From: Candidatus Jorgensenbacteria bacterium
Lineage (GTDB): Bacteria > Patescibacteriota > Minisyncoccia > UBA6257 > GWB1-50-10
Length of the DNA: 64,000 nt
Assembly: GCA_043807585.1 (NCBI GenBank)
Contig: JAZDFV010000015.1
Location: 16,071 to 80,070 of the forward strand
Direction of reading: 5' to 3'
Made by a program: the position numbers and the translations under genes. Below the pieces are notes generated by a model. The model was not told where the DNA came from. It saw nothing but the letters and a program-made list of their open reading frames with translations, and did no database searches. Of this stretch, positions 10,559 to 55,546 are shown in pieces (the first letter of the stretch is position 1; each line of letters opens with the position of its first letter).

Positions 10559-11317
10559 TTATTCGTGCGAATTAGCCGAGGGGAAGATAACGGCCCCGCC
10601 GCGGGAGCGAATCGCGCGCCGCACCGTCGCCATACAACTTTCAAAATCTGCTGTGAGTGCCTTCTCCGTAAGGCGCACCACTACCCATCCACGCTGCTGC
10701 AAGAAAAGATCTTTGGCACGGTCGCGCCTGCGTGTGTGCGCCCCGGCGTGCGCTTTCGTGTTATCGCATTCTACCGCAATGAATCCTCGCCGGCACGATA
10801 TCGCAAAATCAAGGCAGTACCGTTTCCCGCCGGAAATCCGGTATTGCGGAATCGCGGGGATGCCACACCGCGTGAGCGCCTGCGCCACTATCTCTTCTGT
10901 TGGCACCACTCGGTAGAGTTCGAGAATCGTTCTCGCAGTCAACAAACGGTCGAGCGTTGTAAAACCGAACGAAACACGCCTCGGCGGCACGTTCCTGATT
11001 GGCCGCGGGAGTTGTTGGATGCGGCCCACGTGAATTTGTTGATATTGCTTACCCGCGTCAGGATGGGTGGCCTCATCCGGAAGCAGGTCGCGCCGCGTCC
11101 GTACGCGCGAACGAACTGTGCGCGCATAGTAACGGATGCATCGCCCCAGTCGGCCGAAGAGCGCTGGTTGGTAGAACGCGAGATAGTGAAACGCGCGCCG
11201 CGGCGCCTTGGCGACCGGCATACGGTACCAATGCTCACGGAGGAGAATGGCCAAATCGCGCCTGCGCTTCAATATACCGACAAGCACCACCCCATCCTTC
11301 GTGTGTGCGCGCTCCAT
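10559..11317 (-). CDS. DUF559 (endonuclease-like, restriction-endonuclease fold) domain protein
   Basis: C-terminal YCLDFAI...IAVECDNTKAH...DRAKDLFLQQRGWVVVRL resembles the DUF559/Vsr-like fold. Confidence 0.55.
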   Translation of the reverse strand: MERAHTKDGVVLVGILKRRRDLAILLREHWYRMPVAKAPRRAFHYLAFYQPALFGRLGRCIRYYARTVRSRVRTRRDLLPDEATHPDAGKQYQQIHVGRIQQLPRPIRNVPPRRVSFGFTTLDRLLTARTILELYRVVPTEEIVAQALTRCGIPAIPQYRISGGKRYCLDFAISCRRGFIAVECDNTKAHAGAHTRRRDRAKDLFLQQRGWVVVRLTEKALTADFESCMATVRRAIRSRGGAVIFPSANSHE

Positions 11318-12851: not shown

Positions 12852-14429
12852 TCATGCTTCTCGGAGCTTCCGGTCGAGCTTTAGTTTTGCGATGCGCGAA
12901 CGGATGGCGCTCTGTTGACGCCCCAATCGCCCCGCGAGGTTCTTCACGGGCGCGCCGCTCGAAAAAAGTTCTCTCAGTTCTGCATCATCGCTCGTCGGCC
13001 ATGGGCGGTACGCGTTCGGATACCGCTCCCGCATCTCGGCGAACCTGGTATCGCCCGACACTCCGCCGCCGCGTGACCGGGCGAATTCTGCTCGGTGTTC
13101 CGCTCGCCTCTTCATGGTTCCTCCGCACGTAACGATGAATTTCCTTTCCCGTGCGTTTTGGGAAACGGGGGTCTGTAGGGTAAGTTCTGCCGCGGCGCGG
13201 TGAGATAGTTGCTGGAACTCTCCATCACGCGCGAGAATCTCGGGATGCACTTCAAGCGCACGTTCGTTCCACCCGAGAAGGGAAAGCCCGGAAAAAGACC
13301 TCACGCGGGAGAGCGCGACATACCCCTGCCCGTACTCGAACGCGCGAGAGAGATCGACCACCGCGGCGTCGAGCGTCATCCCCTGGCTCTTATGGACGGT
13401 AATGGCCCACGCGAGCTTCAGCGGCACCTGCCGGATGCGCGCGAGCGTTTTCGCGCCGTCCACCATGGACCACTCCATGGGGAGTGCATGAATGAGACGC
13501 CCGGCGTGCGTGCGCACGAGCGGGTAGCCCTCATCGGAAAAATCTTCCACCTCTCCCAGCGTGCCGTTCACAAACCCCTCCTCAAAGTTGTTCTTAGTGA
13601 AGAGCACCTTCGCGCCCAGTTTGAGGAAAAGTCGCTCCGGTGAGAGACAGCCGCGCTTCAATTGCGCTACGAGCGTTTTTGCACCGTGCGATTCCATGGA
13701 GCATTCGCGGACGCTCCCCGGCAATAACGCCAAACGCTCTTCGTTCATTTTATCTACATCAACATTATGTGCGTAGAGATGTGTGTGATTTCCTTCTCGG
13801 ACGGTGTGGACACGCCGCGCGCGAAGCACGGCGGACATTCGCGTTCCACTCCCGCGGCGCACCTCCGAAAGGAGCGCGAGAAACTCCTTTTCATCCTGAC
13901 GGTACTGCTCGGAAAGATAGCACACCGCCACCTCGGCTGTTTCCCAGGACGGCGAGAGAAACGCGAATCGCGCCGGCGGTTCACCTTCCCGTGCAACCGG
14001 GGGTAATTGGAAGAAATCCCCAGCGAGCACCACCTGCAGACCGCCGAACGGCGCTTTATTTTTCCGGAGCACGCGGCACACCACATCAACAGAGGCAAAT
14101 GTTTCGGCATCCAGCATTGAAATCTCATCAATGATGAGCACTTTCGTACGCGCCACCCGCGACGTAAGTCGGTCGTTCCCCGCGAGCAGTTCCGCCTCAT
14201 CTCGGGAGAGCGATTTCCGGATACCGATGCCGGACCACGCATGGATGGTCATACCGCCTATATGCGTCGCCGCGATGCCGGTGGACGCGGTGATCGCCGG
14301 TTCGATACCGTGCGCGCGGAGATAGGCGACGTAGCGGTTCACGGTGTGTGTTTTTCCCGAGCCGGGCTCACCCGTCAAAAACACGTTCACGCCGGACTTC
14401 AACACCATGAGCGCTTGCTCCTGGGTCAT
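12852..14429 (-). CDS. PIF1/RecD-like (AAA_30) ATP-dependent DNA helicase
   Basis: Walker A LTGEPGSGKTH, Walker B VLIIDEISM, helicase motifs plus C-terminal HTH-like tail. Confidence 0.75.
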   Translation of the reverse strand: MTQEQALMVLKSGVNVFLTGEPGSGKTHTVNRYVAYLRAHGIEPAITASTGIAATHIGGMTIHAWSGIGIRKSLSRDEAELLAGNDRLTSRVARTKVLIIDEISMLDAETFASVDVVCRVLRKNKAPFGGLQVVLAGDFFQLPPVAREGEPPARFAFLSPSWETAEVAVCYLSEQYRQDEKEFLALLSEVRRGSGTRMSAVLRARRVHTVREGNHTHLYAHNVDVDKMNEERLALLPGSVRECSMESHGAKTLVAQLKRGCLSPERLFLKLGAKVLFTKNNFEEGFVNGTLGEVEDFSDEGYPLVRTHAGRLIHALPMEWSMVDGAKTLARIRQVPLKLAWAITVHKSQGMTLDAAVVDLSRAFEYGQGYVALSRVRSFSGLSLLGWNERALEVHPEILARDGEFQQLSHRAAAELTLQTPVSQNARERKFIVTCGGTMKRRAEHRAEFARSRGGGVSGDTRFAEMRERYPNAYRPWPTSDDAELRELFSSGAPVKNLAGRLGRQQSAIRSRIAKLKLDRKLREA

Positions 14430-14899
14430 GCGGGTAAATCGTCGTTGATGTGGGTCACCCGCAGCCGCTCAATGCCGTTGGTTTCAAATTCTTTCCAGTA
14501 TTTTTCGAACAGAGGATGGTCTTTCTCGATCCGCTCGGACGCGCTCATCGCCCGAATTTCCTCGTCGGTGTACATTCTGGAACAATCACGGTCCACGAGA
14601 TGGCACGCCAACTCCTCCCAGAAATTTTCCTCGTCGTAGCGATCAATACATTCCTGTATCTCCTCATCGTCCTCGAGTTTCAACGTAGGAACGTGCCGCC
14701 GCATCTCAACGTCGTACTTTACCAAGTCCCCCGCCCCAAACTCCTCGGCGCGGGAGAACATGTAATCCTCGATCTCGTCGAATGCCTCCTTCCGCTTGTC
14801 GTCGGGCGCGTCCGTACGCACCGCGTTCGCAAGCCAGTTGCCCAAGTATACCGTCTTGAGCAGGGCGAGAAACTGGTCTTTAGTAAGTCGAATCTCCAT
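14426..14899 (-). CDS. acidic hypothetical protein translationally coupled (ATGA overlap) to the PIF1-like helicase
   Basis: 157-aa ORF ending 4 nt inside the helicase start. Confidence 0.5.
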   Translation of the reverse strand: MEIRLTKDQFLALLKTVYLGNWLANAVRTDAPDDKRKEAFDEIEDYMFSRAEEFGAGDLVKYDVEMRRHVPTLKLEDDEEIQECIDRYDEENFWEELACHLVDRDCSRMYTDEEIRAMSASERIEKDHPLFEKYWKEFETNGIERLRVTHINDDLPA

Positions 14900-16399: not shown

Positions 16400-17155
16400 T
16401 CAGTTAGTTTTTTTGTACCAAACATCAATTTTTTGACGTGTTTCTCTTCGATTTGCATTAACAAAAGTCTGTAATTGTGGAAAATATCCTAAAAATTCGT
16501 CGTGTAATTTCTTGCGGCTAGCTGATGTCTCTCTACCACTTTTAATTAAATAACTAGTCCGAACTAACCCAATAATAAGATCGACGAGTTGCAGTTCACA
16601 TGATGCATATAAAGGCGCAAAGAGTACTGAAGAATCTCGAATCTGGATTGTGGGCTTCCCCAAAATAGTATTCTTTTTTCTCAGCATATTATTCAGTACC
16701 TTCGAGAATTCTTCCTGTTGCTCAAAATTAAGCGATTGTCTATCAAAGATAAGTCGAGCAGCAGAAAGACGATTGTGTATTAAGCTTCCATGAAGTATCC
16801 ATGGATAAGACAATAGCAGTGCCGCTAACTTCGCGCGGCTGATGTGATTTTCCCATCTTTCCCACGTGCGAGCGTTCACCACAATTGCTCTAAACAGGGC
16901 ATTCGAATCAACAAAAGCAGAAAGAAACCCACTCATAACTTTAGATTGTTTTTCGGTAATATTTGTAGTGTTGGAAAAATGAAGAGTATTGATACAACTT
17001 TCTTTCATTCTCACTTGCCCAAGTCGCTGGAACAAATCGCAATCTACAGGTAGAAAAATACCACCAACCATAAAATGGCTGGTGCCTAGATACCCGAACT
17101 CAGTTTCGTCCAAAAAAATCCTGCAAAGATGAAATACTGATTCTGAAATTTTCAT
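16400..17155 (-). CDS. DUF3800-like protein (defence-island-associated family), AT-rich
   Basis: N-terminal IFLDETEFGY resembles the DUF3800 IFIDESG start; 251 aa; low GC. Confidence 0.4.
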   Translation of the reverse strand: MKISESVFHLCRIFLDETEFGYLGTSHFMVGGIFLPVDCDLFQRLGQVRMKESCINTLHFSNTTNITEKQSKVMSGFLSAFVDSNALFRAIVVNARTWERWENHISRAKLAALLLSYPWILHGSLIHNRLSAARLIFDRQSLNFEQQEEFSKVLNNMLRKKNTILGKPTIQIRDSSVLFAPLYASCELQLVDLIIGLVRTSYLIKSGRETSASRKKLHDEFLGYFPQLQTFVNANRRETRQKIDVWYKKTN

Positions 17156-17223: not shown

Positions 17224-18798
17224 TTATATTCCAAGTTCTTTGTCTCTATTTTTTTCTTCTACCGGCTTCGCTTCCTTGTAGTACCGCAGGGCGCCGAGGG
17301 GCACCCTCGGCTTCTTGTTGTTCAGCAAATCGTCAACGGTGAGGATTTGAATCTTGGGGAATTCAAACTCGTTTCCGAACTTGACCTTGTACGAACCGGC
17401 GCTCGCCGCTTCCTCCAGCATCGGCTTGGTTGGTTTCTCAAGCGTAATGAGCACGCCACCCTCCGCTCGTTCCCGCTCCACGTCACCCTTGAGCGTGGCG
17501 ATATCGTTCCGATGAACCCCGCCGCCTTTCACCTGCACCAGCAAGCGGCCGTATTCCTCGTTCCCATTCTTCAAGTCCTTTACGAACGTAATAACCCCGT
17601 CTATGCCTTTATCGGCGCCGCGCATATGCTCCTTCGTTTTACTTTGAGCCGGCACCGCGTCCACCATATCGAGCACCCAGTATTCGAATTCAAACGGGTC
17701 TTTTTTGAATAGTGCCTGCGCGCTGGCAACATCACGCGGACGACCGTCAATATATATTGCAGGCATCTTTCCTTCAAACTGCTTAGCGAGGCGATGGCGA
17801 ATGAGGTTGATCGCAAGCATCGTGATGTCAATACCGACCCAGTTCCGCTTCAGGCGTTCCGCCACCGACACCGTTGTCCCGCATCCGCAAAATGGGTCAA
17901 GCACCCAATCCATTTCGTTTGAAGATGCCTTAACAATACGTTCAAGGAGTGTTTCTGGTTTTTGAGTGGGATAGCCAAGTCGTTCATTAGGAGAAATATG
18001 CCCTCCTGATGGAATATCAACCCAAAAATCTTCTGGAATCTTACCTCGCTTTAAATATTCCTGACGCACTGTTTCATCCTGTAATTTCCCTTCACTCCCC
18101 CATATTTTTGCCCCAGCACCCTTATCTGTATGTAACTCCTTATAGGGAATCCTCGTTGCTTCAAGATTGCTGTAATAATTATCTGTCTTTGAATATCGCA
18201 AAATTGTGTCATGTTTTTTAGGAAAATCATTCTTTGCACCAGAAGGACCAGTATAGCACCACACAATCTCGTTCCTAAAATTCTGCTTTCCAAAAATCGC
18301 GTCCATCACAATTTTTAAGTAATGGCTTGCGGTCGGGTCACAGTGGAGATAAATACTCCCTGTCGGTTTCAGCACGCGATGTAACTCTAAGAGTCGCACC
18401 GTCATCATGGTGAGATAGGCAAGCACGTCGTTGTGTCCCACGAGTTTCTCCAACGCCTGCATCAGATTGATGATTTTCTCGTTGATGGGCGCTTTTGTAG
18501 TTCGTACTCCCGCGAGTTCCTCGAAGGTTTCCTGCGCATCGCGCGTCCAGTGCCATGAATCTTCAAACGCCTGCACTTGCGAAGGGCTGTCCTGCAACCC
18601 TTCTTTAAAGAGAACATTGTAGTTCCGGTTGGAGTTGAACGGCGGGTCGAGATAAATCAAATCAAAACTCTCGTCGGGAATTTTCTCCCGCAGGATTTCC
18701 AAATTATCGCCGAAGAACAGGGTGCGATTTCTAAGTGGTTCCATTTTTTTCCATCCTACTCCTCTTTTTCTTCCCCGCCAAGCTACGAGAGGGTACAC
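17224..18798 (-). CDS. beta-class N6-adenine/N4-cytosine DNA methyltransferase fused to a C-terminal Mrr-like (PD-(D/E)xK) nuclease domain
   Basis: Motif IV DLIYLDPPFNS precedes motif I LDPFCGCGTT (beta order); C-terminus GADKGIDGVITF...LLVQVKGGG resembles Mrr_cat. Confidence 0.75.
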   Translation of the reverse strand: MYPLVAWRGRKRGVGWKKMEPLRNRTLFFGDNLEILREKIPDESFDLIYLDPPFNSNRNYNVLFKEGLQDSPSQVQAFEDSWHWTRDAQETFEELAGVRTTKAPINEKIINLMQALEKLVGHNDVLAYLTMMTVRLLELHRVLKPTGSIYLHCDPTASHYLKIVMDAIFGKQNFRNEIVWCYTGPSGAKNDFPKKHDTILRYSKTDNYYSNLEATRIPYKELHTDKGAGAKIWGSEGKLQDETVRQEYLKRGKIPEDFWVDIPSGGHISPNERLGYPTQKPETLLERIVKASSNEMDWVLDPFCGCGTTVSVAERLKRNWVGIDITMLAINLIRHRLAKQFEGKMPAIYIDGRPRDVASAQALFKKDPFEFEYWVLDMVDAVPAQSKTKEHMRGADKGIDGVITFVKDLKNGNEEYGRLLVQVKGGGVHRNDIATLKGDVERERAEGGVLITLEKPTKPMLEEAASAGSYKVKFGNEFEFPKIQILTVDDLLNNKKPRVPLGALRYYKEAKPVEEKNRDKELGI

Positions 18799-19002: not shown

Positions 19003-19221
19003 ATGTGGCCTAGGCCTAAGACGACACTTCGCTTGCGAGGTTCAAACGTCATGGCACATACGAAAGGACTGGGAAAGGAGTACATTTACTGCCAATCGAT
19101 CGACTCACCTCCAGAATGGCAGGACGAAGTAGACTACCTCATTTATGAAGTTCAAAGTCTATTGATAGTAGAGAGGTTCAGCCAAAGATCGGTCGAGACA
19201 GATTTTGTACCTTCTCCCTAA
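19003..19221 (+). CDS. small hypothetical ORF ending at a rho-independent terminator
   Basis: 72-aa ORF; terminator immediately follows. Confidence 0.3.
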   Translation: MWPRPKTTLRLRGSNVMAHTKGLGKEYIYCQSIDSPPEWQDEVDYLIYEVQSLLIVERFSQRSVETDFVPSP

Positions 19222-19250
19222 GCCCAACAAGGATATCCTTGTTGGGCTTT
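19221..19250 (+). terminator. rho-independent terminator agcccaacaaggatatccttgttgggc then ttt
   Basis: 11-bp perfect stem, T-run on the plus strand. Confidence 0.55.
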
Positions 19251-19362: not shown

Positions 19363-19719
19363 TCATTTATTAAAAGCCCATTCAGAAATATTGAGCAGAA
19401 CAATAGCATCCTCCTGTTGATTGGTCCAAATAGGTACTGTTTTATTCCAGTAGAAGAAGTGTGAAGTATTGCCACTCCCATTTACTTGTGTTTTATAAGA
19501 CCCTTTCTTTGTATAAAGAACAATTAAATCACCCTTTTTAATTTCGTGGTCAGTAAACCAAAAAGTAGCACTGGTAGCACTAGAAACTTGCGCCTCCCCT
19601 GTTTTTTTAGATTTGAAAACGGCGTATTCTCCAACGTTATCATCATCCAAAACCTCAAAAATAACCCTTTCTTTCTCTAAATTCCCCGCGTCTTCAATTC
19701 CTTTAATTTGGATTTTCAT
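19363..19719 (-). CDS. hypothetical soluble protein, AT-rich, first gene of a two-gene module
   Basis: 118 aa; stop/start overlap with the upstream gene. Confidence 0.45.
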   Translation of the reverse strand: MKIQIKGIEDAGNLEKERVIFEVLDDDNVGEYAVFKSKKTGEAQVSSATSATFWFTDHEIKKGDLIVLYTKKGSYKTQVNGSGNTSHFFYWNKTVPIWTNQQEDAIVLLNISEWAFNK

Positions 19720-20267
19720 TATGAATTATTTTTCTTAAAAGATTTCAAAAAATCAGGGTTCCACATAGCCAAAACAAAACTCGCTAAACATAAAAGTGCT
19801 ATACCCCAACGATATTGCAATAAATCAGGAGTAAAGAAAAGACCTCCCAATAAACCACCAACGGTGAATAAAAGATTCCTTACTCCAATAGATTCTCCTA
19901 ATCCTAATAATCTCTCCTTCAAAACAGCGGATTCTTCACTCTTTTGATAAAATTTATCCTTAAATGGTTTTAATCCAGCAATTTCACTTTGATAACGCTT
20001 AGTATCACCAAGAAGTGTTCTAGCTACCACTTTTGCTACTTTATTGTTTTCTAAATCTTCTTCGGTAATTTCATCTTTAATGCCAGCGTAGGGCGTTTTT
20101 GCTGACTTAACGCCATCTATTTCTGGCGAACCCTTCGGCTCCTCATCTAGTTTTAGAACTATCTTAGCCATTTTGTCTAAGTATAACACACCTGGTTCAA
20201 TGGTATCTACCAAAGAGTAATCCCGATATTTATAATGAGACAAGGATAGCTTTTCTCTAGAAACCAC
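19719..20267 (-). CDS. hypothetical protein with C-terminal transmembrane helices, AT-rich
   Basis: 182 aa; hydrophobic C-terminus NLLFTVGGLLGGLFF...IALLCLASFVLAMW. Confidence 0.45.
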   Translation of the reverse strand: MVSREKLSLSHYKYRDYSLVDTIEPGVLYLDKMAKIVLKLDEEPKGSPEIDGVKSAKTPYAGIKDEITEEDLENNKVAKVVARTLLGDTKRYQSEIAGLKPFKDKFYQKSEESAVLKERLLGLGESIGVRNLLFTVGGLLGGLFFTPDLLQYRWGIALLCLASFVLAMWNPDFLKSFKKNNS

Positions 20268-36379: not shown

Positions 36380-36754
36380 CTACCTTCCCGTCCTCTTTTC
36401 TTTCGGCGCCCCGGCAATGATTCCCTCCCAATAGTTAAGCAATGTATTGTCGTCTGCTTCGTCTTTGCTTTCAATTCTCCTCACAAAAACTCCCGGCTGT
36501 CTTTCCATGGGCAAAAAATCGACATAGAGAGCTTCATCTTCGGAAAAGACGGGCAAATTGAGCTTCTGGGAATAGAATCTTGCCTTGATCTCTGCGTTTT
36601 CTTCGGCGGTCGTACCATGTTCCTGCGGCTTCTCTGTGATGCCAAAATCGTCAAGGACAAAAATATCTTTAATCATCCCGACGAACAACCCTCCAAACCT
36701 TTCCTTTTTGGCCAGATTACGAGTGGCGATCACTATCTTTTCTACTTTTTCCAT
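36380..36754 (-). CDS. RdgB/Ham1-family non-canonical purine NTP pyrophosphatase, N-terminal portion only (possibly truncated)
   Basis: KIVIATRNLAKKERF ... GTTAEENAEIKARF ... DEALYVDFLPMERQPGVFVRR match Ham1 blocks, but the ORF is 124 aa against about 200. Confidence 0.5.
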   Translation of the reverse strand: MEKVEKIVIATRNLAKKERFGGLFVGMIKDIFVLDDFGITEKPQEHGTTAEENAEIKARFYSQKLNLPVFSEDEALYVDFLPMERQPGVFVRRIESKDEADDNTLLNYWEGIIAGAPKEKRTGR

Positions 36755-36899
36755 TTTTTAATTTTACCCCTTCGATAAACTCAGGACAAGCAAAAAACCG
36801 TCTGTTTGGCGATTTTTATTGGCTTGCCCTGAGCTTGTTGAAGGGCTCCGCTGGATGGATGATGCCTGCCCTGAGCAAAGTCGAAGGGTTAGGGCCTGT

Positions 36900-37580
36900 T
36901 TAGGATATTTCTGCATAGATCGGGTAATGATCCATATAAGCACCTCGTTCTCTCACTACTTTCGACCGCACACTACAGTGTTCAGTAATAAAGATTTTAT
37001 CCATAGATGTGCCGAAATAAGTCGTTGCTAATCCTGCTGAAGTGTCCGACGTGTAGTTGGTGAGAAGCTCGTACGATCGTCTATCTGTGTTGGATAGGAA
37101 ACGTTTTCCAATAATCCAGAAGTTAGTATCTCCGGCAATAATAACCTTGCCGTACTCCTTTATTATTTCACTAAGTATTTTGACTTGCCCAAAGCGTTTT
37201 TCCGGCGAGAAGGAGTTGAGATGTATAGGGACAATATAGTTATCATTCACTGTTAGAATTGTGAACTCTCTAGTCCCATCAACGATTTCTATGTCGGCAT
37301 TTGCGATAACTGCGATGGAATGCTTGTGGTACCAGGCATCCACTAAGAGATGGTGGGCGTAGCGAAGTTTGGTTTGAATTCTAGTAACGTCGCTCGGATG
37401 ATAAAACTCCTGAAGTATCACAACGTCGGCCGATATTTCTTGAAGAACCCCCACTACCTTCTCTATGTTTCCTTCAGAGTAGTATTCGTTTTCTATCGGG
37501 ACATTTCCAATGGTAAATTTCAGGTATCTTGCGTATTTCATCCACGGAAACAACCCGGTATTCCAAACGCAAAGCTTCAT
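36900..37580 (-). CDS. endonuclease/exonuclease/phosphatase (EEP) family protein
   Basis: VVILQE, IIAGDTNF and DHYPIYAEI motifs. Confidence 0.7.
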   Translation of the reverse strand: MKLCVWNTGLFPWMKYARYLKFTIGNVPIENEYYSEGNIEKVVGVLQEISADVVILQEFYHPSDVTRIQTKLRYAHHLLVDAWYHKHSIAVIANADIEIVDGTREFTILTVNDNYIVPIHLNSFSPEKRFGQVKILSEIIKEYGKVIIAGDTNFWIIGKRFLSNTDRRSYELLTNYTSDTSAGLATTYFGTSMDKIFITEHCSVRSKVVRERGAYMDHYPIYAEIS

Positions 37581-37913
37581 GGTAATTAGGAGTATGCCAG
37601 TTCCGGACAGTTTTCGTTCCGCTGGATAGACGATGCCTGCCCCGTTACAAAACTTGTTTTTGCAATGGGGTGAGAACCTGTTTGGTCAGCACTAAAAAAT
37701 ATCTCGCCGGAAGGTACCTAGGTTTTATCGTCGATCACTCTCCCAATGGCAACGCCAACGGCCACGGCAACAAAAAACCAAAGAACTCTATCCCAAAGCC
37801 GAGAAAAGTGCTCTGGCTGGCCAAAAATACTGGCGAGGAAAAATGCCGCGATGACTATGTAAACCAACTCTTTCCACCATTTCATAACCATTCTTGTGAT
37901 GGGTGGGTGGTTT

Positions 37914-38147
37914 TCACTTTTCTAGCCCGCTTAATCTCAAACAATTTTGATAGATAAAATTTAATTCACTCCTTCTTTCTGATTCGGTATTATAGATACG
38001 CAGTAGGCTTTTTATTGCTGAATTAAAACAACTTTTTCTAATTTGTGCTGGGCGAATCTCCCACCAATAAAAAGCTCCGACAACAGAAATAACCAAAATG
38101 GCCAGTAACCCAATCTTAAACCAATTTTCTTTGAGCCAGTTTTTCAT
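37914..38147 (-). CDS. small hypothetical membrane protein
   Basis: 77 aa with one TM helix; AT-rich region. Confidence 0.3.
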   Translation of the reverse strand: MKNWLKENWFKIGLLAILVISVVGAFYWWEIRPAQIRKSCFNSAIKSLLRIYNTESERRSELNFIYQNCLRLSGLEK

Positions 38148-38183
38148 AATTCAGATTCGAAAGAAAAATTTCCCCTTTATGGA

Positions 38184-39794
38184 CTACCAGAAACATCGAA
38201 CACTTCCAGCTGTCGGATTTGATTGACAAGTGACGCTTTTGTAATCCGAATCAGTGCAGTTGAGATAGCCAGGAGCGCCCTGTGAACAGCGTAGCATGCT
38301 AGAACCAAAGTTATCCCTGCAGGAAAATCCGGTGATGTTGTTGGTGCAGGTGACTGACGAAGGAGAACTTTTTATTTGTGGGAGAGAAATCGAACCAGAT
38401 ACGCCTACAGAATTCCCTATTGCACGAGTTATTGATATAATCTCATTTCCAACCGAATCAGTTTCTGACGGCGAGACAGAACCACCGGAATTTACTCGCT
38501 GTTGAATCGAACTCAATTGATTTGATACCCAACTGATCTTGTCCGAAATTGACGTATCAAGCTTGTATCGCGCAATACAATCGTCCCGACGTATTTCGAG
38601 GTCTCGTAAATCTCGCGCTAATTGATCCTCGATGTTCTTTTCTATGCTCGGCATGGTAGCAAAGCCTCTTCTGCTTTCGTAGTAAGCGGTTTTCTGTCTT
38701 TCAGCATCCTGTTTTAGGTAATCGACATTACTGTTATAGGAAGCGAGGCAATTTTGTTCCCCTCTGCTGGCAATATCTTGTTTCATCTGATATAGACGTT
38801 GTAAGTCTAATACCGTCTTTTGGTAGTAATCTAAATCTGATTTTGTTTGTCTTAGAATCTGCTCTTTTAGAAATTTCAATAATTCGCTTTCCAGTGCCGA
38901 TGAAGATATAGTAGGAGTATTATTTTGGGTTGGCCTAGTTTCAGAAGTAGGAGGAAATATCGGTTCAGCAGTTACGGGCACGGACGCACTTTCAGATTTT
39001 TGTTTATTCAGCTCTTGCGGGGTTTTTGCTTTGACCGCTTCTTTCAATCTCAGCTCCTCCACTTCTTTTTTTAACTTTTCAACTTCATTCGCTTGCGGAT
39101 CGCTCGATTCTTTTTTCAATTCCGCTACTTCTTTTTTCAGTTTTTCAATCTCGCCCTTGAGTTCGGCGATTTGTTTTGTTGCTTCATCTTGACCCTTTCT
39201 GCTTGCTTCAATCGCTTTTGTAATCGCCTCTTTCGCTTCATCAGGAACTCTACTTAAAACATCTGATAAAATTTCTTGATGTTTTGAAGTGTTATCAGTA
39301 ATTGAAGCAAGCAATCCTTCCGCCTTTTCCTTATTTTTGATTTGCTTAGATTCTTCTGTTGCGTAAGCGATATTGTTTTCATAACCGGCAACAGCAGTTT
39401 TAACGGCGCTGGTGTCCTTTTCTTCCGCAAGGGCTTCCGCTTCGGCTAATCGTTCATCGGCATATTCCAATGCTTTCTGCGCTTTCTTTTCGGGACTGAA
39501 TGTGAAAAATAGACTTACTCTTTCAAAAGTCGTATCAAAAAAGTAAAAGAAGCTACCGGGTTTTACGCCCGCGTTCGCGGCGGCCGAAGCAGAAACCGGT
39601 AGTGCAAAAACAACCACCAAAAACAAAAGGATAGTAACAAAAGATGATTTTTTCATCAGTTTCATTATATGCGATTTTTCATTTTTTTCGCTCCCGCTAC
39701 GCGGACCTTGCCGCAATAGCAAGCAGTTCCTTGGCGATGACATCCGCGGCGAGCGGTTTCCAAAACAACTTTGCGGCCCGCCGGGCGGCCTCAA
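38184..39794 (-). CDS. secreted coiled-coil protein with Cys-rich C-terminus (DUF5667-like N-terminal region); probable start at internal MKLMKK
   Basis: Signal peptide SSFVTILLFLVVVFALPVSASA, long EAEK-rich coiled-coil, C-terminal Cys cluster; low GC. Confidence 0.45.
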   Translation of the reverse strand: MRPPGGPQSCFGNRSPRMSSPRNCLLLRQGPRSGSEKNEKSHIMKLMKKSSFVTILLFLVVVFALPVSASAAANAGVKPGSFFYFFDTTFERVSLFFTFSPEKKAQKALEYADERLAEAEALAEEKDTSAVKTAVAGYENNIAYATEESKQIKNKEKAEGLLASITDNTSKHQEILSDVLSRVPDEAKEAITKAIEASRKGQDEATKQIAELKGEIEKLKKEVAELKKESSDPQANEVEKLKKEVEELRLKEAVKAKTPQELNKQKSESASVPVTAEPIFPPTSETRPTQNNTPTISSSALESELLKFLKEQILRQTKSDLDYYQKTVLDLQRLYQMKQDIASRGEQNCLASYNSNVDYLKQDAERQKTAYYESRRGFATMPSIEKNIEDQLARDLRDLEIRRDDCIARYKLDTSISDKISWVSNQLSSIQQRVNSGGSVSPSETDSVGNEIISITRAIGNSVGVSGSISLPQIKSSPSSVTCTNNITGFSCRDNFGSSMLRCSQGAPGYLNCTDSDYKSVTCQSNPTAGSVRCFW

Positions 39795-40827
39795 GCGCCT
39801 CGGGGTTCTCGAGGAGGTGTGCAGCCATATTGAGGAAAAGATTGACAGAGAGATTCTTCTGCTCGATCACGGTGGCGGCACCGCTCCCTGCATACTCGTA
39901 GGCATTCGCGCGCTGCTGCCCACCGTCGATCTCGAGGGGAACCAGGAGTGCGGGTTTACCGAACGTGGCGATCTCGTAGATGCTCCCCGCCCCGGCGCGC
40001 GAGAGCACGATGTCCGCCGCCGAGAGCGCCACGCCGAGGGCACGGTCGTCGAGGTTGCCCGCCACCCGGTAGCGCGGTTTGAACACTTCGCCCGCGTCGC
40101 GGAGCACCGAATCGGTGATGCGCTGTACCTCCGGGAGGTTCGCTGCCCCCGCTTGGTGGTAAACTTGGAATTTTTCGAGGAGTGTCGTGAGATTATCAAC
40201 CACGAACGCGTTCAGGGGTGCCGCGCCTTGGGAACCCCCGAGGACAAGGAGGAGCGGCTCACCGGAGTTGAACTTGAGCTCCGTCCTGGCCGTCTCCTGT
40301 GGAGGGACTCCTGCGCGGAGCCCCATGCGCACCGGGTTTCCCACAAACGCCGTTTTCTTTGCGGGAAAGAACCGGGCCGCCCCTTGAAATGCGATGCCGA
40401 TGCGCCTTGCGAAGGGAGCGGAGAGGCGGCTCGTGAGTCCCGGCACCGCGTCGGACTCATGGATCATCACGGGGACGAGATAGAAGCGTGCGGCAAGCAC
40501 CACCGCGAGCGCTCCCGGCCCCCCTTTGGAGAACACCACGTCGGGCATGAGGAGGTAGAGCTTAGTGAGCGCCTGGATGATGCCTATAAAGAACCGCGGC
40601 ACGTCAAGGAGGTTCTGGAAAAAACCGTAGCCGCGCCGCAGCTTGCTTCCCGCAACGGTGTGGATTGCGATCCCACGTTCCTCGAACTCCTCAAGGAATG
40701 CGCTCCGTGGACCGAGGTAGGTAAGCTCGAGGTCGGTCCCTGCGATGGATTTGAGTTTATCGGCAACCGCAAGAAGCGGGTAGATGTGCCCTCCGGTGCC
40801 GCCTCCTGTTAAGACGATTCGTAACAT
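39697..40827 (-). CDS. murG: undecaprenyldiphospho-muramoylpentapeptide beta-N-acetylglucosaminyltransferase
   Basis: MLRIVLTGGGTGGHIYPLLAV N-terminal G-loop and GT28 C-terminal domain. Confidence 0.9.
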   Translation of the reverse strand: MLRIVLTGGGTGGHIYPLLAVADKLKSIAGTDLELTYLGPRSAFLEEFEERGIAIHTVAGSKLRRGYGFFQNLLDVPRFFIGIIQALTKLYLLMPDVVFSKGGPGALAVVLAARFYLVPVMIHESDAVPGLTSRLSAPFARRIGIAFQGAARFFPAKKTAFVGNPVRMGLRAGVPPQETARTELKFNSGEPLLLVLGGSQGAAPLNAFVVDNLTTLLEKFQVYHQAGAANLPEVQRITDSVLRDAGEVFKPRYRVAGNLDDRALGVALSAADIVLSRAGAGSIYEIATFGKPALLVPLEIDGGQQRANAYEYAGSGAATVIEQKNLSVNLFLNMAAHLLENPEALEAARRAAKLFWKPLAADVIAKELLAIAARSA

Positions 40828-52537: not shown

Positions 52538-53224
52538 ATGTTATCCCCTTCTCTTAAAGAAAAGGCTGTCGCGCTCCGGCGTGGTGGTCTTTCTTACTCT
52601 GAAATACTCAACCAAATACCAATTGCAAAATCAACTCTTTCGACGTGGTTACATTCGGTTGGATTATCCAAAAAACAAAAGCAACGACTGACGGAAAAGA
52701 AATTAGCTTCTGCAAGACGCGGCGCTTTTAGAAAGCACGAAATAAGACTCTTAAAAACGGATGCTATTTTCAAAGAGGCAATAAAAGATATTGCCCATAT
52801 TTCCGAAAGAGAGTTGTTTCTTATAGGCGTTGCGTTGTATTGGGCAGAAGGAGCTAAAGAAAAAGAATGGAGGCCTGGGTCAGGGGTACAATTCACAAAC
52901 TCAGATGCTTCTATGGTAACACTCTTCTTGAAATGGCTTACTGATGTGTGCCGTGTAGATAAAGATGAAATCTACTTTGACCTTTTTATTCACGAAACCA
53001 GCAAGAATCGAGTTAGTTCTATAATTGATTATTGGTCCAAACATACAAATTTTCCAAGAAATTACTTCCAGCACGTTTATTTTAAACGAAATAAACTAGC
53101 CACCAAGAGAAAAAACGTTGGAGATTCTTATTTTGGAGTTATAAAGGTGAGAGTAAAAACAAGCTCAACACTAAATAGAAAAATTGCAGGATGGACAAAG
53201 GGCGTGATAAAGTATGCAAAGTGA
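52538..53224 (+). CDS. hypothetical protein with N-terminal HTH and a LAGLIDADG-like core (possible degenerate homing endonuclease), low GC, ending 2 nt before tRNA-Gln
   Basis: LSYSEILNQIPIAKSTLSTWL HTH-like; ELFLIGVALYWAEGAKE resembles a LAGLIDADG helix. Confidence 0.35.
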   Translation: MLSPSLKEKAVALRRGGLSYSEILNQIPIAKSTLSTWLHSVGLSKKQKQRLTEKKLASARRGAFRKHEIRLLKTDAIFKEAIKDIAHISERELFLIGVALYWAEGAKEKEWRPGSGVQFTNSDASMVTLFLKWLTDVCRVDKDEIYFDLFIHETSKNRVSSIIDYWSKHTNFPRNYFQHVYFKRNKLATKRKNVGDSYFGVIKVRVKTSSTLNRKIAGWTKGVIKYAK

Positions 53225-53226
53225 AT

Positions 53227-53297
53227 TGGGGGGTGGTGTAACGGTAGCACGCCAGGCTTTGAACCTGGAAATTTAGGTCCGATTCCTAGCCCCCCAG
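53227..53297 (+). tRNA. tRNA-Gln (anticodon TTG); T-loop reads TCCGATT (C at position 55); CCA not encoded
   Basis: Hand-folded cloverleaf: acceptor TGGGGGG/CCCCCCA, 3-bp D-stem GTG/CAC (as in E. coli tRNA-Gln), anticodon stem CCAGG/CCTGG, loop CTTTGAA, T-stem TTAGG/CCTAG. Confidence 0.6.
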
Positions 53298-53544
53298 CAC
53301 TCAATTTTTCTTAGCAAGGAACGAGCTTAGAAAAATGAGTGCTCCGACCGGAGAGTCTGAGCGAATAAGTCAGCGCAGCCTGCCCTGAGTTAACCCTGGG
53401 TTTGCCGAAGGATTTATCGAAGGGTATCGAGGGGCCGAGGAGCCTCATAAATATGCTAATAACTACAGGAAAGGACCTAGAGCCAAACATAAAAAATATC
53501 TCGAAAACATAGAGAGTCGGTTTTTATTTCATGATATTTACGGA

Positions 53545-54411
53545 TTGAAACATCCTCTAGCAACCTATAATGTTTCCTTCGGGAAGGTTGAGAGTGATTT
53601 ACAGGATTTTTTTGTTGCGTATAAAAATATTGAAATTAGAGATTTTCTTCCGGAAAACAAAAGCGATGAGAAGATAAAAGAAGCATTAAAACGTTATAGG
53701 GTTTTTCTTTATTCTTTAAGAGAGTATCTAGACGACTGCTTTCATGTCGTAAAAACCTTTATCCCTCCGCAACCACAATTTAGATACAATAAAAATCAAT
53801 ATGATTGGTTGAAACAAAATATTATCATGCCACATATGGTGTCTTTTCTTAGTAAAATTGATACCTATAAAAAGTTCTTAGATAGTATTGTTAATGAACT
53901 CAAACACAATAACGCTGTTCTAAACGGGATTGTTTTCTATGACACAATCACCAAAGATTTTTCATTAGGATACTATATAGCAAATGTGTTCAATGGAAGA
54001 TATGAACCAGTAGAGAAAATCCACCAGAAATTTCATAATCAAGACACCGCGTTTTCTTTCGCGAGGGATATTAGATATAACTCTTGCAATATCTTTCAAT
54101 TATCTGAGGAACTAGTTGAATTTATTGTTAATGGTTTGAAATTGCAGATACCTGTACCTACGCAGGAACGAACTCCAAATGAGGAGCGCCGCTTGCTATA
54201 TGAAGATATTTCTAATCTACCAAGATATTTTTTCCCTGATGAATATCAAAAAGATGTTCCAAGCGTAGTACTAAGAGAAAATAGTGCATTAAAATTAGAG
54301 CTCCCTTCTAAACTTTCTTTGAGACCACTCCATCACAACAGAGTGTTGCTTTATCACTCTGGCGATGGGAAAACGAGGAGTTTTGCATTACTTTACTACT
54401 CTGGAGAATAA
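53545..54411 (+). CDS. hypothetical protein, AT-rich island
   Basis: 288-aa ORF, no recognised family. Confidence 0.4.
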   Translation: MKHPLATYNVSFGKVESDLQDFFVAYKNIEIRDFLPENKSDEKIKEALKRYRVFLYSLREYLDDCFHVVKTFIPPQPQFRYNKNQYDWLKQNIIMPHMVSFLSKIDTYKKFLDSIVNELKHNNAVLNGIVFYDTITKDFSLGYYIANVFNGRYEPVEKIHQKFHNQDTAFSFARDIRYNSCNIFQLSEELVEFIVNGLKLQIPVPTQERTPNEERRLLYEDISNLPRYFFPDEYQKDVPSVVLRENSALKLELPSKLSLRPLHHNRVLLYHSGDGKTRSFALLYYSGE

Positions 54412-54504
54412 CCCCGACCGAGACGGGTCAATGGGAAAATGCATTTCCAGCAACTTCTCCCTCCTTGTTGTTCCTAACCGCCCTTCTATACTGGAGGTAC
54501 GCCT

Positions 54505-54753
54505 ATGAGAAAGATTATTGGTTCAATATTGGATATTGCTTACTACCTTTTAGGAGCATCTGCGGTGGTAGTTTTATACGCTATCTTCAAATCATCAGTA
54601 CCGTCGGGCCTACGCTGGCTTTTTTGGGTCGTTTTTATCGGGGGTCTCTGGTTAGTGGCTTGGATAGTGGCCCGGAAACAGGGTAAATCATTTTGGGATA
54701 TTTGGAGTGAAAACAAAGAAAGTGGATCCGATCAAGATAAGTCAGCAAAATAG
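54505..54753 (+). CDS. hypothetical two-TM small membrane protein
   Basis: 82-aa ORF, two hydrophobic helices. Confidence 0.4.
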   Translation: MRKIIGSILDIAYYLLGASAVVVLYAIFKSSVPSGLRWLFWVVFIGGLWLVAWIVARKQGKSFWDIWSENKESGSDQDKSAK

Positions 54754-54832
54754 GTTCGAATAGCGTTCTTACTACGCAACACGAGTCAGCACGGTATCGA
54801 GAGACCAAGAGAGATAACAACGTGTTACTAGA

Positions 54833-55546
54833 ATGAACAACAACGGGGAACTTAAAAAGAAGCTTGATGAACTGGTTAAAAATGCTGACTTCATTCTGGC
54901 TAGTCCCGATACGTTAGAAAAACTAAAGGCGAGGGGATTTCCCATTCAATCTAAGTTTGTAACTTATCAAGAATATCTAGATAAATTATTTGAAGAGAAA
55001 AAGAAAAATGCCAATGAAATCATTCAGGATTTCCCGCCGCTTTCTGATAAGTTAGCGAATGCCGCAATAAAATCATTATACGAAGAGATAAGAGAATGCT
55101 ATGCCTTAGGTCTATTTGGAGCAGCCATAACTTTATCGGTAATTCTTTTAGAACTGGGTTTTAAATATAAAATTTATAACAAAAGAAGAGAACATGATCC
55201 AAAATCACAATGGGAAAAAATAGAAATAATCGATCTTACTACGGCAATCAAAAATTTAAAAAATCTTGGTGAATTATCAAATTCTGAGAAAAAAGAATTG
55301 GACAATTTTAATTTAGAGATAAGAAATCCGTACATCCACTATAATTTACAAAAACTAGTTTGCAATATAATGGTAGAAAAGTTACCTCTACTCAAAACCG
55401 AAACAGGCGAGATGGAAATTCTTGAGAATGTAGAAGTTGCAAAAAAACCTTATTTATGGTTTTCGGGTAAAAAATTTGTGGATAAAAATCAAGCTCACAG
55501 CATACTTAAGTTTTGTATTGGGTGGGTAAATAAAGTTTTGGGATAG
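54833..55546 (+). CDS. hypothetical protein, AT-rich
   Basis: 237-aa ORF, no recognised family. Confidence 0.4.
   Translation: MNNNGELKKKLDELVKNADFILASPDTLEKLKARGFPIQSKFVTYQEYLDKLFEEKKKNANEIIQDFPPLSDKLANAAIKSLYEEIRECYALGLFGAAITLSVILLELGFKYKIYNKRREHDPKSQWEKIEIIDLTTAIKNLKNLGELSNSEKKELDNFNLEIRNPYIHYNLQKLVCNIMVEKLPLLKTETGEMEILENVEVAKKPYLWFSGKKFVDKNQAHSILKFCIGWVNKVLG

Follow-up and report, generated by a model that had tools for sequence, protein, structure and literature searches.

Identification of the fusion gene and its start codon

The 64,000 nucleotides of Candidatus Jorgensenbacteria DNA analysed here (contig JAZDFV010000015.1, positions 16,071 to 80,070; hereafter the window) carry on the minus strand a gene that joins a DNA methyltransferase (MTase) to a C-terminal Mrr-type nuclease domain. 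The open reading frame (ORF) 17224-18798, to which a preliminary description of the window had assigned both domains, was present, and encodes 524 amino acids (aa) when begun at GTG. Its frame stood but its start at 18798 probably does not: an ATG at 18744 (MEPLRNR...) has an AGGA about 9 nt upstream and agrees with the N-termini of all homologs. By these signs the gene probably starts at this ATG, and the GTG extension to 18798 is probably untranslated. Residues are numbered here from Met1 at window position 18744 in the 506-aa protein; adding 18 gives the numbering of the 524-aa ORF. The 506-aa translation is identical to MFH1162365.1, recorded as 'MAG: DNA methyltransferase [Candidatus Jorgensenbacteria bacterium]' (MAG, metagenome-assembled genome).

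All of the sequence strings quoted in the preliminary description were found, and each was mapped to window coordinates by translation. The Pfam comparison that it had proposed gave three families above their curated cut-offs, PF01555, PF04471 and PF22722. The features of the gene are listed in Table 1.

Table 1. Location of the fusion gene and of its domains and motifs in the window
Feature	Position	Strand	Basis
MTase-Mrr fusion, probable coding sequence (506 aa + stop)	17224..18744	-	upstream AGGA; N-termini of homologs
Beta-class N6/N4 amino-methyltransferase region, residues 1-325	17770..18744	-	PF01555; PDB sequence matches
MTase motif IV, D33-P-P-F36 (catalytic)	18637..18648	-	>=97% conserved in 85 relatives
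Hypervariable module, residues 161-255, at the beta-class target-recognition position	17980..18264	-	column and pairwise identity
MTase motif I, F285-C-G-C-G289 (binding of S-adenosylmethionine, AdoMet)	17878..17892	-	>=97% conserved in 85 relatives
Mrr-type PD-(D/E)xK nuclease domain, residues 335-480	17305..17742	-	PF04471; PF22722; AlphaFold2 (AF2); Foldseek; hhalign
Nuclease motif I, F353-E354	17683..17688	-	aligned on Mrr F171-E172
Nuclease motif II, D378-K-G-I-D382, with the extra upstream Asp that is the Mrr-family signature	17599..17613	-	aligned on Mrr D199-x-G-I-D203
Nuclease motif III, Q404-V-K406	17527..17535	-	aligned on Mrr Q219-x-K221
C-terminal tail, residues 481-506, with motif P482 ... 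Y-Y-K-E-A492	17227..17304	-	conservation; predicted local distance difference test (pLDDT) <50

The methyltransferase half

The N-terminal part of the protein matched PF01555 (N6_N4_Mtase) with an E-value of 5.9e-48 and 164.2 bits, against a cut-off of 26.7. Motif IV (residues 33-36) precedes motif I (residues 285-289) and the hypervariable segment lies between them, which is the permuted order of beta-class MTases; the assignment to this class in the preliminary description was upheld by both results. Sequence matches in the PDB, namely M.RsrI, MboIIA, 8urk/9c3u, CcrM and EcoP15I Mod, were confined to the N-terminal 330 residues. The MTase_II model of PADLOC was also matched (E 2.4e-55), and methyltransferase models were the only ones that PADLOC recognised in the fusion protein. 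The DPPF motif and the relationship to adenine MTases suggest that the product of methylation is probably N6-methyladenine.

The Mrr-type nuclease domain

That the C-terminal part is an Mrr_cat domain of the PD-(D/E)xK type had also been proposed earlier, and Pfam scores, alignment to the Mrr profile, structural matches to MspJI and AspBHI and residue conservation all agreed with it; the possibility that the region is a non-catalytic or unrelated domain was not borne out. PF04471 (Mrr_cat) was matched with an E-value of 5.8e-9 (36.5 bits, cut-off 21) and PF22722 (NA-iREase1), which overlaps it, with an E-value of 4.3e-10 (40 bits, cut-off 27). In a profile-profile alignment by hhalign, the C-terminal domain of the family was aligned to E. 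coli Mrr (E 7.7e-6) with every motif residue in register, and the catalytic D/E/K residues, whose state had been left to be checked, were found intact in motifs I to III. These correspond to the Mrr-family motifs I (F-E, in the first helix), II (D-x-G-h-D) and III (Q-x-K) of Smith et al. (PMC2790908). Only chance matches were obtained when the nuclease domain alone was compared with PDB sequences. The AF2 model of the domain had a predicted template modelling score (pTM) of 0.74 and a core pLDDT of about 90, and its top Foldseek matches were the catalytic domains of MspJI (4f0p, E 6.3e-4) and AspBHI (4oc8), followed by the N-domain of Rpb5, which has the same fold. In a library of viral structures the best named matches of the model were annotated as restriction endonucleases (REases).

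Conservation was assessed in 85 relatives from several phyla and in a wider sample of 150 diverged representatives. Among the former, D378, G380, D382 and K406 were each present in 85/85 and Q404 in 82/85, and residue 354 was E in 75 and Q in 10. Among the latter, motif II was recognised by a strict pattern in 140 and the Lys of motif III was near-universal; the first position of motif III was Q in 73, S in 62 and E in 2, and Q was commoner than E in motif I. The strictly conserved set as read from the alignment, Asp-Asp-Lys, is the same as the essential set in LlaGI, in which D74A, D78A and K94A abolish cleavage and E38A and Q92A reduce it (PMC2790908). By its motifs and predicted fold, the C-terminal domain is a genuine nuclease domain of the Mrr type that retains its catalytic residues, and cleavage of DNA is predicted for it. 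The pattern of conservation indicates that both catalytic centres are under strong purifying selection. At least 97% of the 85 relatives keep P482 and A492 in the tail, for which disorder is predicted.

The hypervariable recognition module

The module between the two MTase motifs is the least conserved stretch of the protein, with a mean column identity of 0.40-0.46 in the 85 relatives against 0.8-0.9 in the core. Across 199 proteins the mean pairwise identity is 0.64 in the scaffold and 0.22 in the module, which falls into at least 54 clusters and varies in length from 74 to 155 aa. Scaffold and module were found to be discordant in both directions: two proteins of one genome (OY763072.1; L033 and L040) are 90% identical in the scaffold and 10% in the module, and another pair (P0043 and P0065) is 79% identical in the scaffold and 98% in the module. 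Such discordance indicates that the module is exchanged independently of the scaffold.

Tandem paralogs were found in a Caldilineaceae MAG (OZ241379.1, L031:4978-11859), which has four copies, and at L080 and L075, with two copies each. In the L031 array, 300-nt blocks are 86-97% identical in DNA sequence at the 5' ends of the copies and 92-97% identical in their 3' halves, and the middles are divergent. This cassette-like layout could let recombination shuffle the recognition module. In the MmeI family both activities take their specificity from one module, and specificities diverge on a conserved scaffold (PMC4081073); the identities of scaffold and module found here match the pattern of diversification described for these Type IIG enzymes (PMC4081073).

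Size, spread and integrity of the family

The fusion gene is a member of a large family that is already sequenced and uncharacterised, and we found no paper in the literature describing this MTase-Mrr fusion. The Haloferax protein HVO_A0006, a 'methyltransferase-related PD-(D/E)xK protein' (PMC4389544), was considered and rejected as a gamma-class Type IIG fragment of unrelated architecture. The best 120 database matches were 57-76% identical and about 500 aa long; nearly all had the architecture of three Pfam families, and they came from many lineages of the candidate phyla radiation (CPR). Across distant CPR lineages, proteins of the CPR type are 60-76% identical. Full-length homologs with 43-50% identity were found by a genome scan in Dehalococcoidia, Anaerolineae, Caldilineaceae, Acidobacteriota, Latescibacterota, Ignavibacteriota, Nitrospirales and others; some of the scanned genomes had 2-3 copies of the fusion, and most copies were chromosomal. 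Versions of the CPR type (57-63% identity) were also seen in two MAGs labelled as Gammaproteobacteria (L010 and L011) and one labelled as Actinobacteria (L023), a placement due either to recent horizontal transfer or to mis-binned contigs.

A profile search with the nuclease domain retrieved 3,091 clusters (at 50% identity) with E<=1e-3 and 1,498 with E<=1e-10. The domain was C-terminal in the matches, and the longer matches carried PF01555. Short matches that resembled standalone versions of the nuclease domain were fragments starting at internal Met codons of the fusion, and were rejected. By these searches the nuclease subfamily occurs almost only C-terminal to this MTase. In one rare outlier, P0246, the nuclease domain (residues 279-440) follows an N-terminal part that is unrelated and not a methylase. 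When truncated gene calls and an over-strict pattern were discounted, 238 of 239 near-full-length members kept the motifs of both methylase and nuclease. Apparent 'MTase-dead' and 'nuclease-dead' members were explained by these two causes except for P0098, which has DPHF instead of DPPF and intact nuclease motifs.

The nuclease domain was carried by 28 of 50,697 phage records and by 8 of 72,556 plasmid records. Full-length homologs with 42-44% identity, annotated as DNA methyltransferases, were seen in 22 Streptomyces phages; others were in 5 Mycobacterium phages, in Marinitoga phage MPV1 and on rhizobial and actinobacterial plasmids such as pMLa. In the temperate Streptomyces phage Yasdnil the homolog, gp48 (L087:3855-5492), adjoins a serine integrase. 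Both gp48 and the copy on Mesorhizobium pMLa (L088:4891-6615) have Ser in place of the Gln of motif III.

Genomic context and search for a partner gene

The fusion gene is followed, 68 bp away, by a gene for a DUF3800 protein (16400-17155, minus strand), and upstream of it lie the genes of two small proteins (19363-19719 and 19719-20267, both minus strand), with the stop of one overlapping the start of the other. No restriction, specificity or helicase family was matched among the genes flanking the fusion in the window. A Res partner, with a superfamily 2 (SF2) helicase and a nuclease, was found neither in the window nor in 83 loci of the family nor among the 145 ORFs that are nearest neighbours there. 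Each Pfam family was seen at most 4 times among these 145 ORFs, with Res, HsdS and REase families absent, and in an all-against-all comparison of 768 ORFs no neighbour cluster occurred in more than 6 of the 83 loci, those few being generic housekeeping genes. The gene had been described as solitary, with no specificity or restriction subunit nearby, and this held both for the window and for the 83 related loci.

The DUF3800 gene and the two small genes of the window are not conserved beside the family in other loci. The DUF3800 gene was considered as an equivalent of a gene for RNase_H_2 / PolB-exo that lies downstream in a relative, but BLASTP found no similarity between the two, and the latter gene is not conserved beside the family either. 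Mobile-element and defence genes are abundant around some relatives and include toxin-antitoxin pairs, an integrase, Bro-N, Fic and a gene for a Schlafen-like protein. The fusion gene lies in a low-GC island: the G + C content is 0.49 in the gene itself and 0.35-0.38 in its neighbours, against about 0.58 for the genome, which indicates that the fusion gene was acquired horizontally.

A hairpin (19220-19249) with a perfect 13-bp stem, AAGCCCAACAAGG ATAT CCTTGTTGGGCTT, lies within the 620 bp that separate the fusion gene from the two-gene unit upstream of it. It may terminate the upstream transcript, in which case the fusion gene would have a promoter of its own. Promoter and terminator scans around the fusion gene gave results no better than shuffled sequence.

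Comparison with known restriction-modification systems

At the level of domains and motifs, the endonuclease and MTase domains lie in a single polypeptide, as in restriction-modification (R-M) enzymes of Type IIC/IIG. The usual domain order of these enzymes is not followed, and BtgZI is the stated MTase-first exception (PMC4081073). The preliminary description had given a Type IIG-like enzyme as one option; the single-chain R-M part of it was retained, and the label was replaced with 'Type IIC-like', which is more exact in view of the beta class of the MTase and its place at the N-terminus; a Type IIG label would also imply that AdoMet stimulates cleavage or is required for it. In Type IIG/IIL enzymes (MmeI family, BpuSI, Eco57I) restriction and modification are set on one specificity module, so that a change of module retargets both (PMC4081073), as is predicted for the fusion. 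In these enzymes, however, the nuclease comes first and is followed by a gamma-class methylase with NPPY/F/W and a recognition domain at the C-terminus, in a chain of about 900-1,100 aa. The fusion, of about 500 aa, runs in the opposite order, and its methylase is beta-class, with DPPF and an internal module.

By comparison of architecture, BtgZI, a Type IIC/IIS enzyme, is the nearest characterised precedent. As in the fusion, one chain begins with an amino-methyltransferase and ends with a Q-x-K nuclease (Gln for Glu) (PMC4081073). BtgZI differs in that its methylase is alpha-class and that it is biochemically proven; the two were compared by description only. The Type ISP enzymes LlaGI and LlaBIII are likewise single chains with an Mrr-family nuclease and the same motifs I-III (PMC2790908), but in these the nuclease is N-terminal and is joined to a translocase motor of SF2, a methylase of the gamma class and a recognition domain at the C-terminus. 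Pfam found no ATPase domain in the fusion protein.

The best matches of residues 1-330 were beta-class Type II MTases (M.RsrI, M.MboIIA, 8urk/9c3u) and Type III Mod subunits, in which, as in the fusion, the motif order is permuted and the conserved halves enclose a variable recognition module. Unlike the fusion, they are without a nuclease domain and need a separate REase or Res. The Type IV enzyme Mrr and the enzymes MspJI and AspBHI have homologous catalytic domains, as judged from the Mrr alignment and the structural matches, but in them the nuclease is paired with a winged-helix or SRA domain that reads modified bases, and a methylase is absent (PMC12707154). No winged-helix or SRA match was found in the fusion protein by Pfam, and its N-terminal 330 residues are MTase.

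Proposed function and alternative explanations

A modular R-M enzyme is supported, since the motifs for both activities are intact, the modelled nuclease fold is closest to active Mrr-like enzymes, the nuclease subfamily is almost confined to this fusion, the module is hypervariable, there is no conserved partner, and the family is spread widely and on mobile elements. We think it fairly probable that the fusion gene encodes a self-contained, single-chain Type IIC-like R-M enzyme, with activity predicted from sequence and structural models. A precedent is provided by BtgZI, an active Type IIC enzyme in which the MTase comes first and a Q-x-K nuclease last (PMC4081073).

We infer that such an enzyme would act as follows. 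The N-terminal beta-class methylase and the variable central module would read a specific DNA sequence, host copies of which would be methylated by the N-terminal MTase. The fused Mrr nuclease would cut at or near unmethylated sites found by the same module, so that invading DNA would be cut and the host defended. With one nuclease site per chain, a double-strand cut would need two chains, supplied by an MTase dimer or by two bound sites. Beta-class MTases commonly dimerise. Double-strand cutting by two chains has been proposed for Type IIC enzymes and FokI (PMC4081073). As one module would specify both activities, a module swap would retarget restriction and protection together.

A broader proposal is possible but doubtful. 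It holds that the family forms a distinct class of minimal R-M enzymes of about 55 kDa, ATP-independent and with specificity evolving by exchange of the internal module as cassettes, for which tandem arrays with near-identical flanks would be a shufflon-like reservoir, and that it would be a major innate-immunity gene of CRISPR-poor CPR bacteria; the Mrr nuclease would replace the REase or Res partner, and the compact scaffold would be a source of many specificities. The architecture is a variant of known single-chain R-M enzymes, and the family itself is already sequenced.

If active, enzymes of about 500 aa would be the smallest combined R-M enzymes yet described and the first on a beta-class methylase, and the architectural range of single-chain R-M enzymes would be wider. 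They would help to explain defence by one gene in small-genome CPR bacteria, and the family, with its many module clusters, could be mined for new specificities. Current database labels are inconsistent ('DNA methyltransferase', 'restriction endonuclease', 'hypothetical protein') and would then be corrected. If the nuclease does not restrict, it would have to be explained why a methylase keeps an Mrr active site so strictly.

Several points weigh against an R-M enzyme. Conservation of residues does not prove catalysis, and we found no biochemical or genetic data for any family member in the literature. The full-length AF2 model was poor (pLDDT 61, pTM 0.42), and the geometry of MTase and nuclease is not readable from it. 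The acidic residue of motif III is absent (Q or S) and in the wider family the Glu of motif I is mostly Gln, which leaves few carboxylates, although this is likewise the case in the active sites of Mrr, LlaGI and MspJI. Many copies are chromosomal and lie among housekeeping genes, not in obvious defence islands. Phages and conjugative plasmids, among which solitary protective MTases are common, carry full-length homologs. Finally, the top-scoring Pfam model for the nuclease domain, PF22722, is named as a family of NACHT-associated 'inactive REase' domains. What this name implies was not seen in the fusion, which has no NACHT/NTPase domain and whose Asp-Asp-Lys set is present in 85/85 relatives; the PF22722 match, judged by the name of the family, does not outweigh the results on the catalytic residues.

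The last two of these points also favour the main rival to an R-M enzyme, a solitary methylase that shields a mobile element from host restriction or serves in epigenetic marking, with the Mrr-like domain as a module for non-specific DNA binding, anchoring or dimerisation or as a nuclease with some other regulated purpose. No cognate partner gene was found at the 83 loci or among the 145 nearest neighbours, most database annotations are plain DNA methyltransferase, and REase folds have been recruited elsewhere for non-catalytic roles, as in Rpb5, which was among the structural matches. We nevertheless regard a solitary methylase as unlikely: Asp-Asp-Lys is kept across about 1,500 clusters, whereas non-catalytic derivatives normally lose active-site residues, and the first position of motif III is only Q, S or E, of which Q and S occur in active enzymes (PMC2790908) and E is the canonical residue of PD-(D/E)xK. 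Chromosomal tandem arrays of 2-4 paralogs with diversified modules are also hard to square with a regulatory methylase. The setting on temperate phages (Yasdnil, beside its serine integrase) and conjugative plasmids could instead point to a selfish or offensive methylase-nuclease, either an addiction module that would kill cells on loss of the gene or a tool with which a phage or plasmid, its own DNA being protected, would degrade unmethylated resident DNA. The low-GC, horizontally acquired setting in the window and the high identity of the proteins across distant CPR lineages, which implies frequent transfer, are in keeping with this; but phage and plasmid records with the nuclease domain are few, as counted above, most copies are chromosomal, and we judge the explanation improbable. 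It is moreover compatible with defence, as classical R-M systems behave in both ways.

Least probable of all, and in our estimate highly so, is a modification-dependent nuclease similar to Type IV, an option raised in the preliminary description, in which the MTase-like domain would read methylated DNA and modified foreign DNA would be cut. The nearest structural matches of the nuclease domain, MspJI and AspBHI, are indeed modification-dependent, as is E. coli Mrr. In these enzymes, however, the dependence is conferred by a distinct reader at the N-terminus, either SRA or winged-helix (PMC12707154), and no such reader of modified bases is present here by Pfam. The Mrr nuclease domain of LlaGI is not methyl-directed in itself (PMC2790908). 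Furthermore, the catalytic motifs of the MTase are intact, with DPPF and FxGxG at least 97% conserved, which argues for an active methylase, and such an enzyme would make its own substrate. The modification-dependent option is not supported, and the Type IIC-like R-M enzyme was kept as the favoured explanation.

Other features of the window

A 252-aa ORF (10559-11317, minus strand), about 6 kb from the fusion gene, has a C-terminal endonuclease domain of the Vsr/DUF559 type (REase_MTES_1575, E 7e-14). It is overlapped by a long ORF on the opposite strand, and no link to the fusion was found. A PIF1/RecD-like helicase gene (12852-14429, minus strand) gave weak matches to PADLOC candidate-defence models (PDC-S68, E 1.4e-18). 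The helicase start and the stop of a 157-aa gene upstream (14426-14899, minus strand) overlap, and the pair lies just outside the low-GC island of the fusion gene.

Low-GC islands were also seen further along the window. One at 36400-39800 (G + C content 0.42-0.45) contains genes for an Exo_endo_phos protein (36900-37580) and a DUF5667 protein (38184-39794). Another at 52538-55546 (0.32-0.38) has three ORFs (228, 288 and 237 aa) that match nothing in Pfam and lies beside tRNA-Gln (53227-53298), the sole tRNA gene in the window; this island may be an integrated element.

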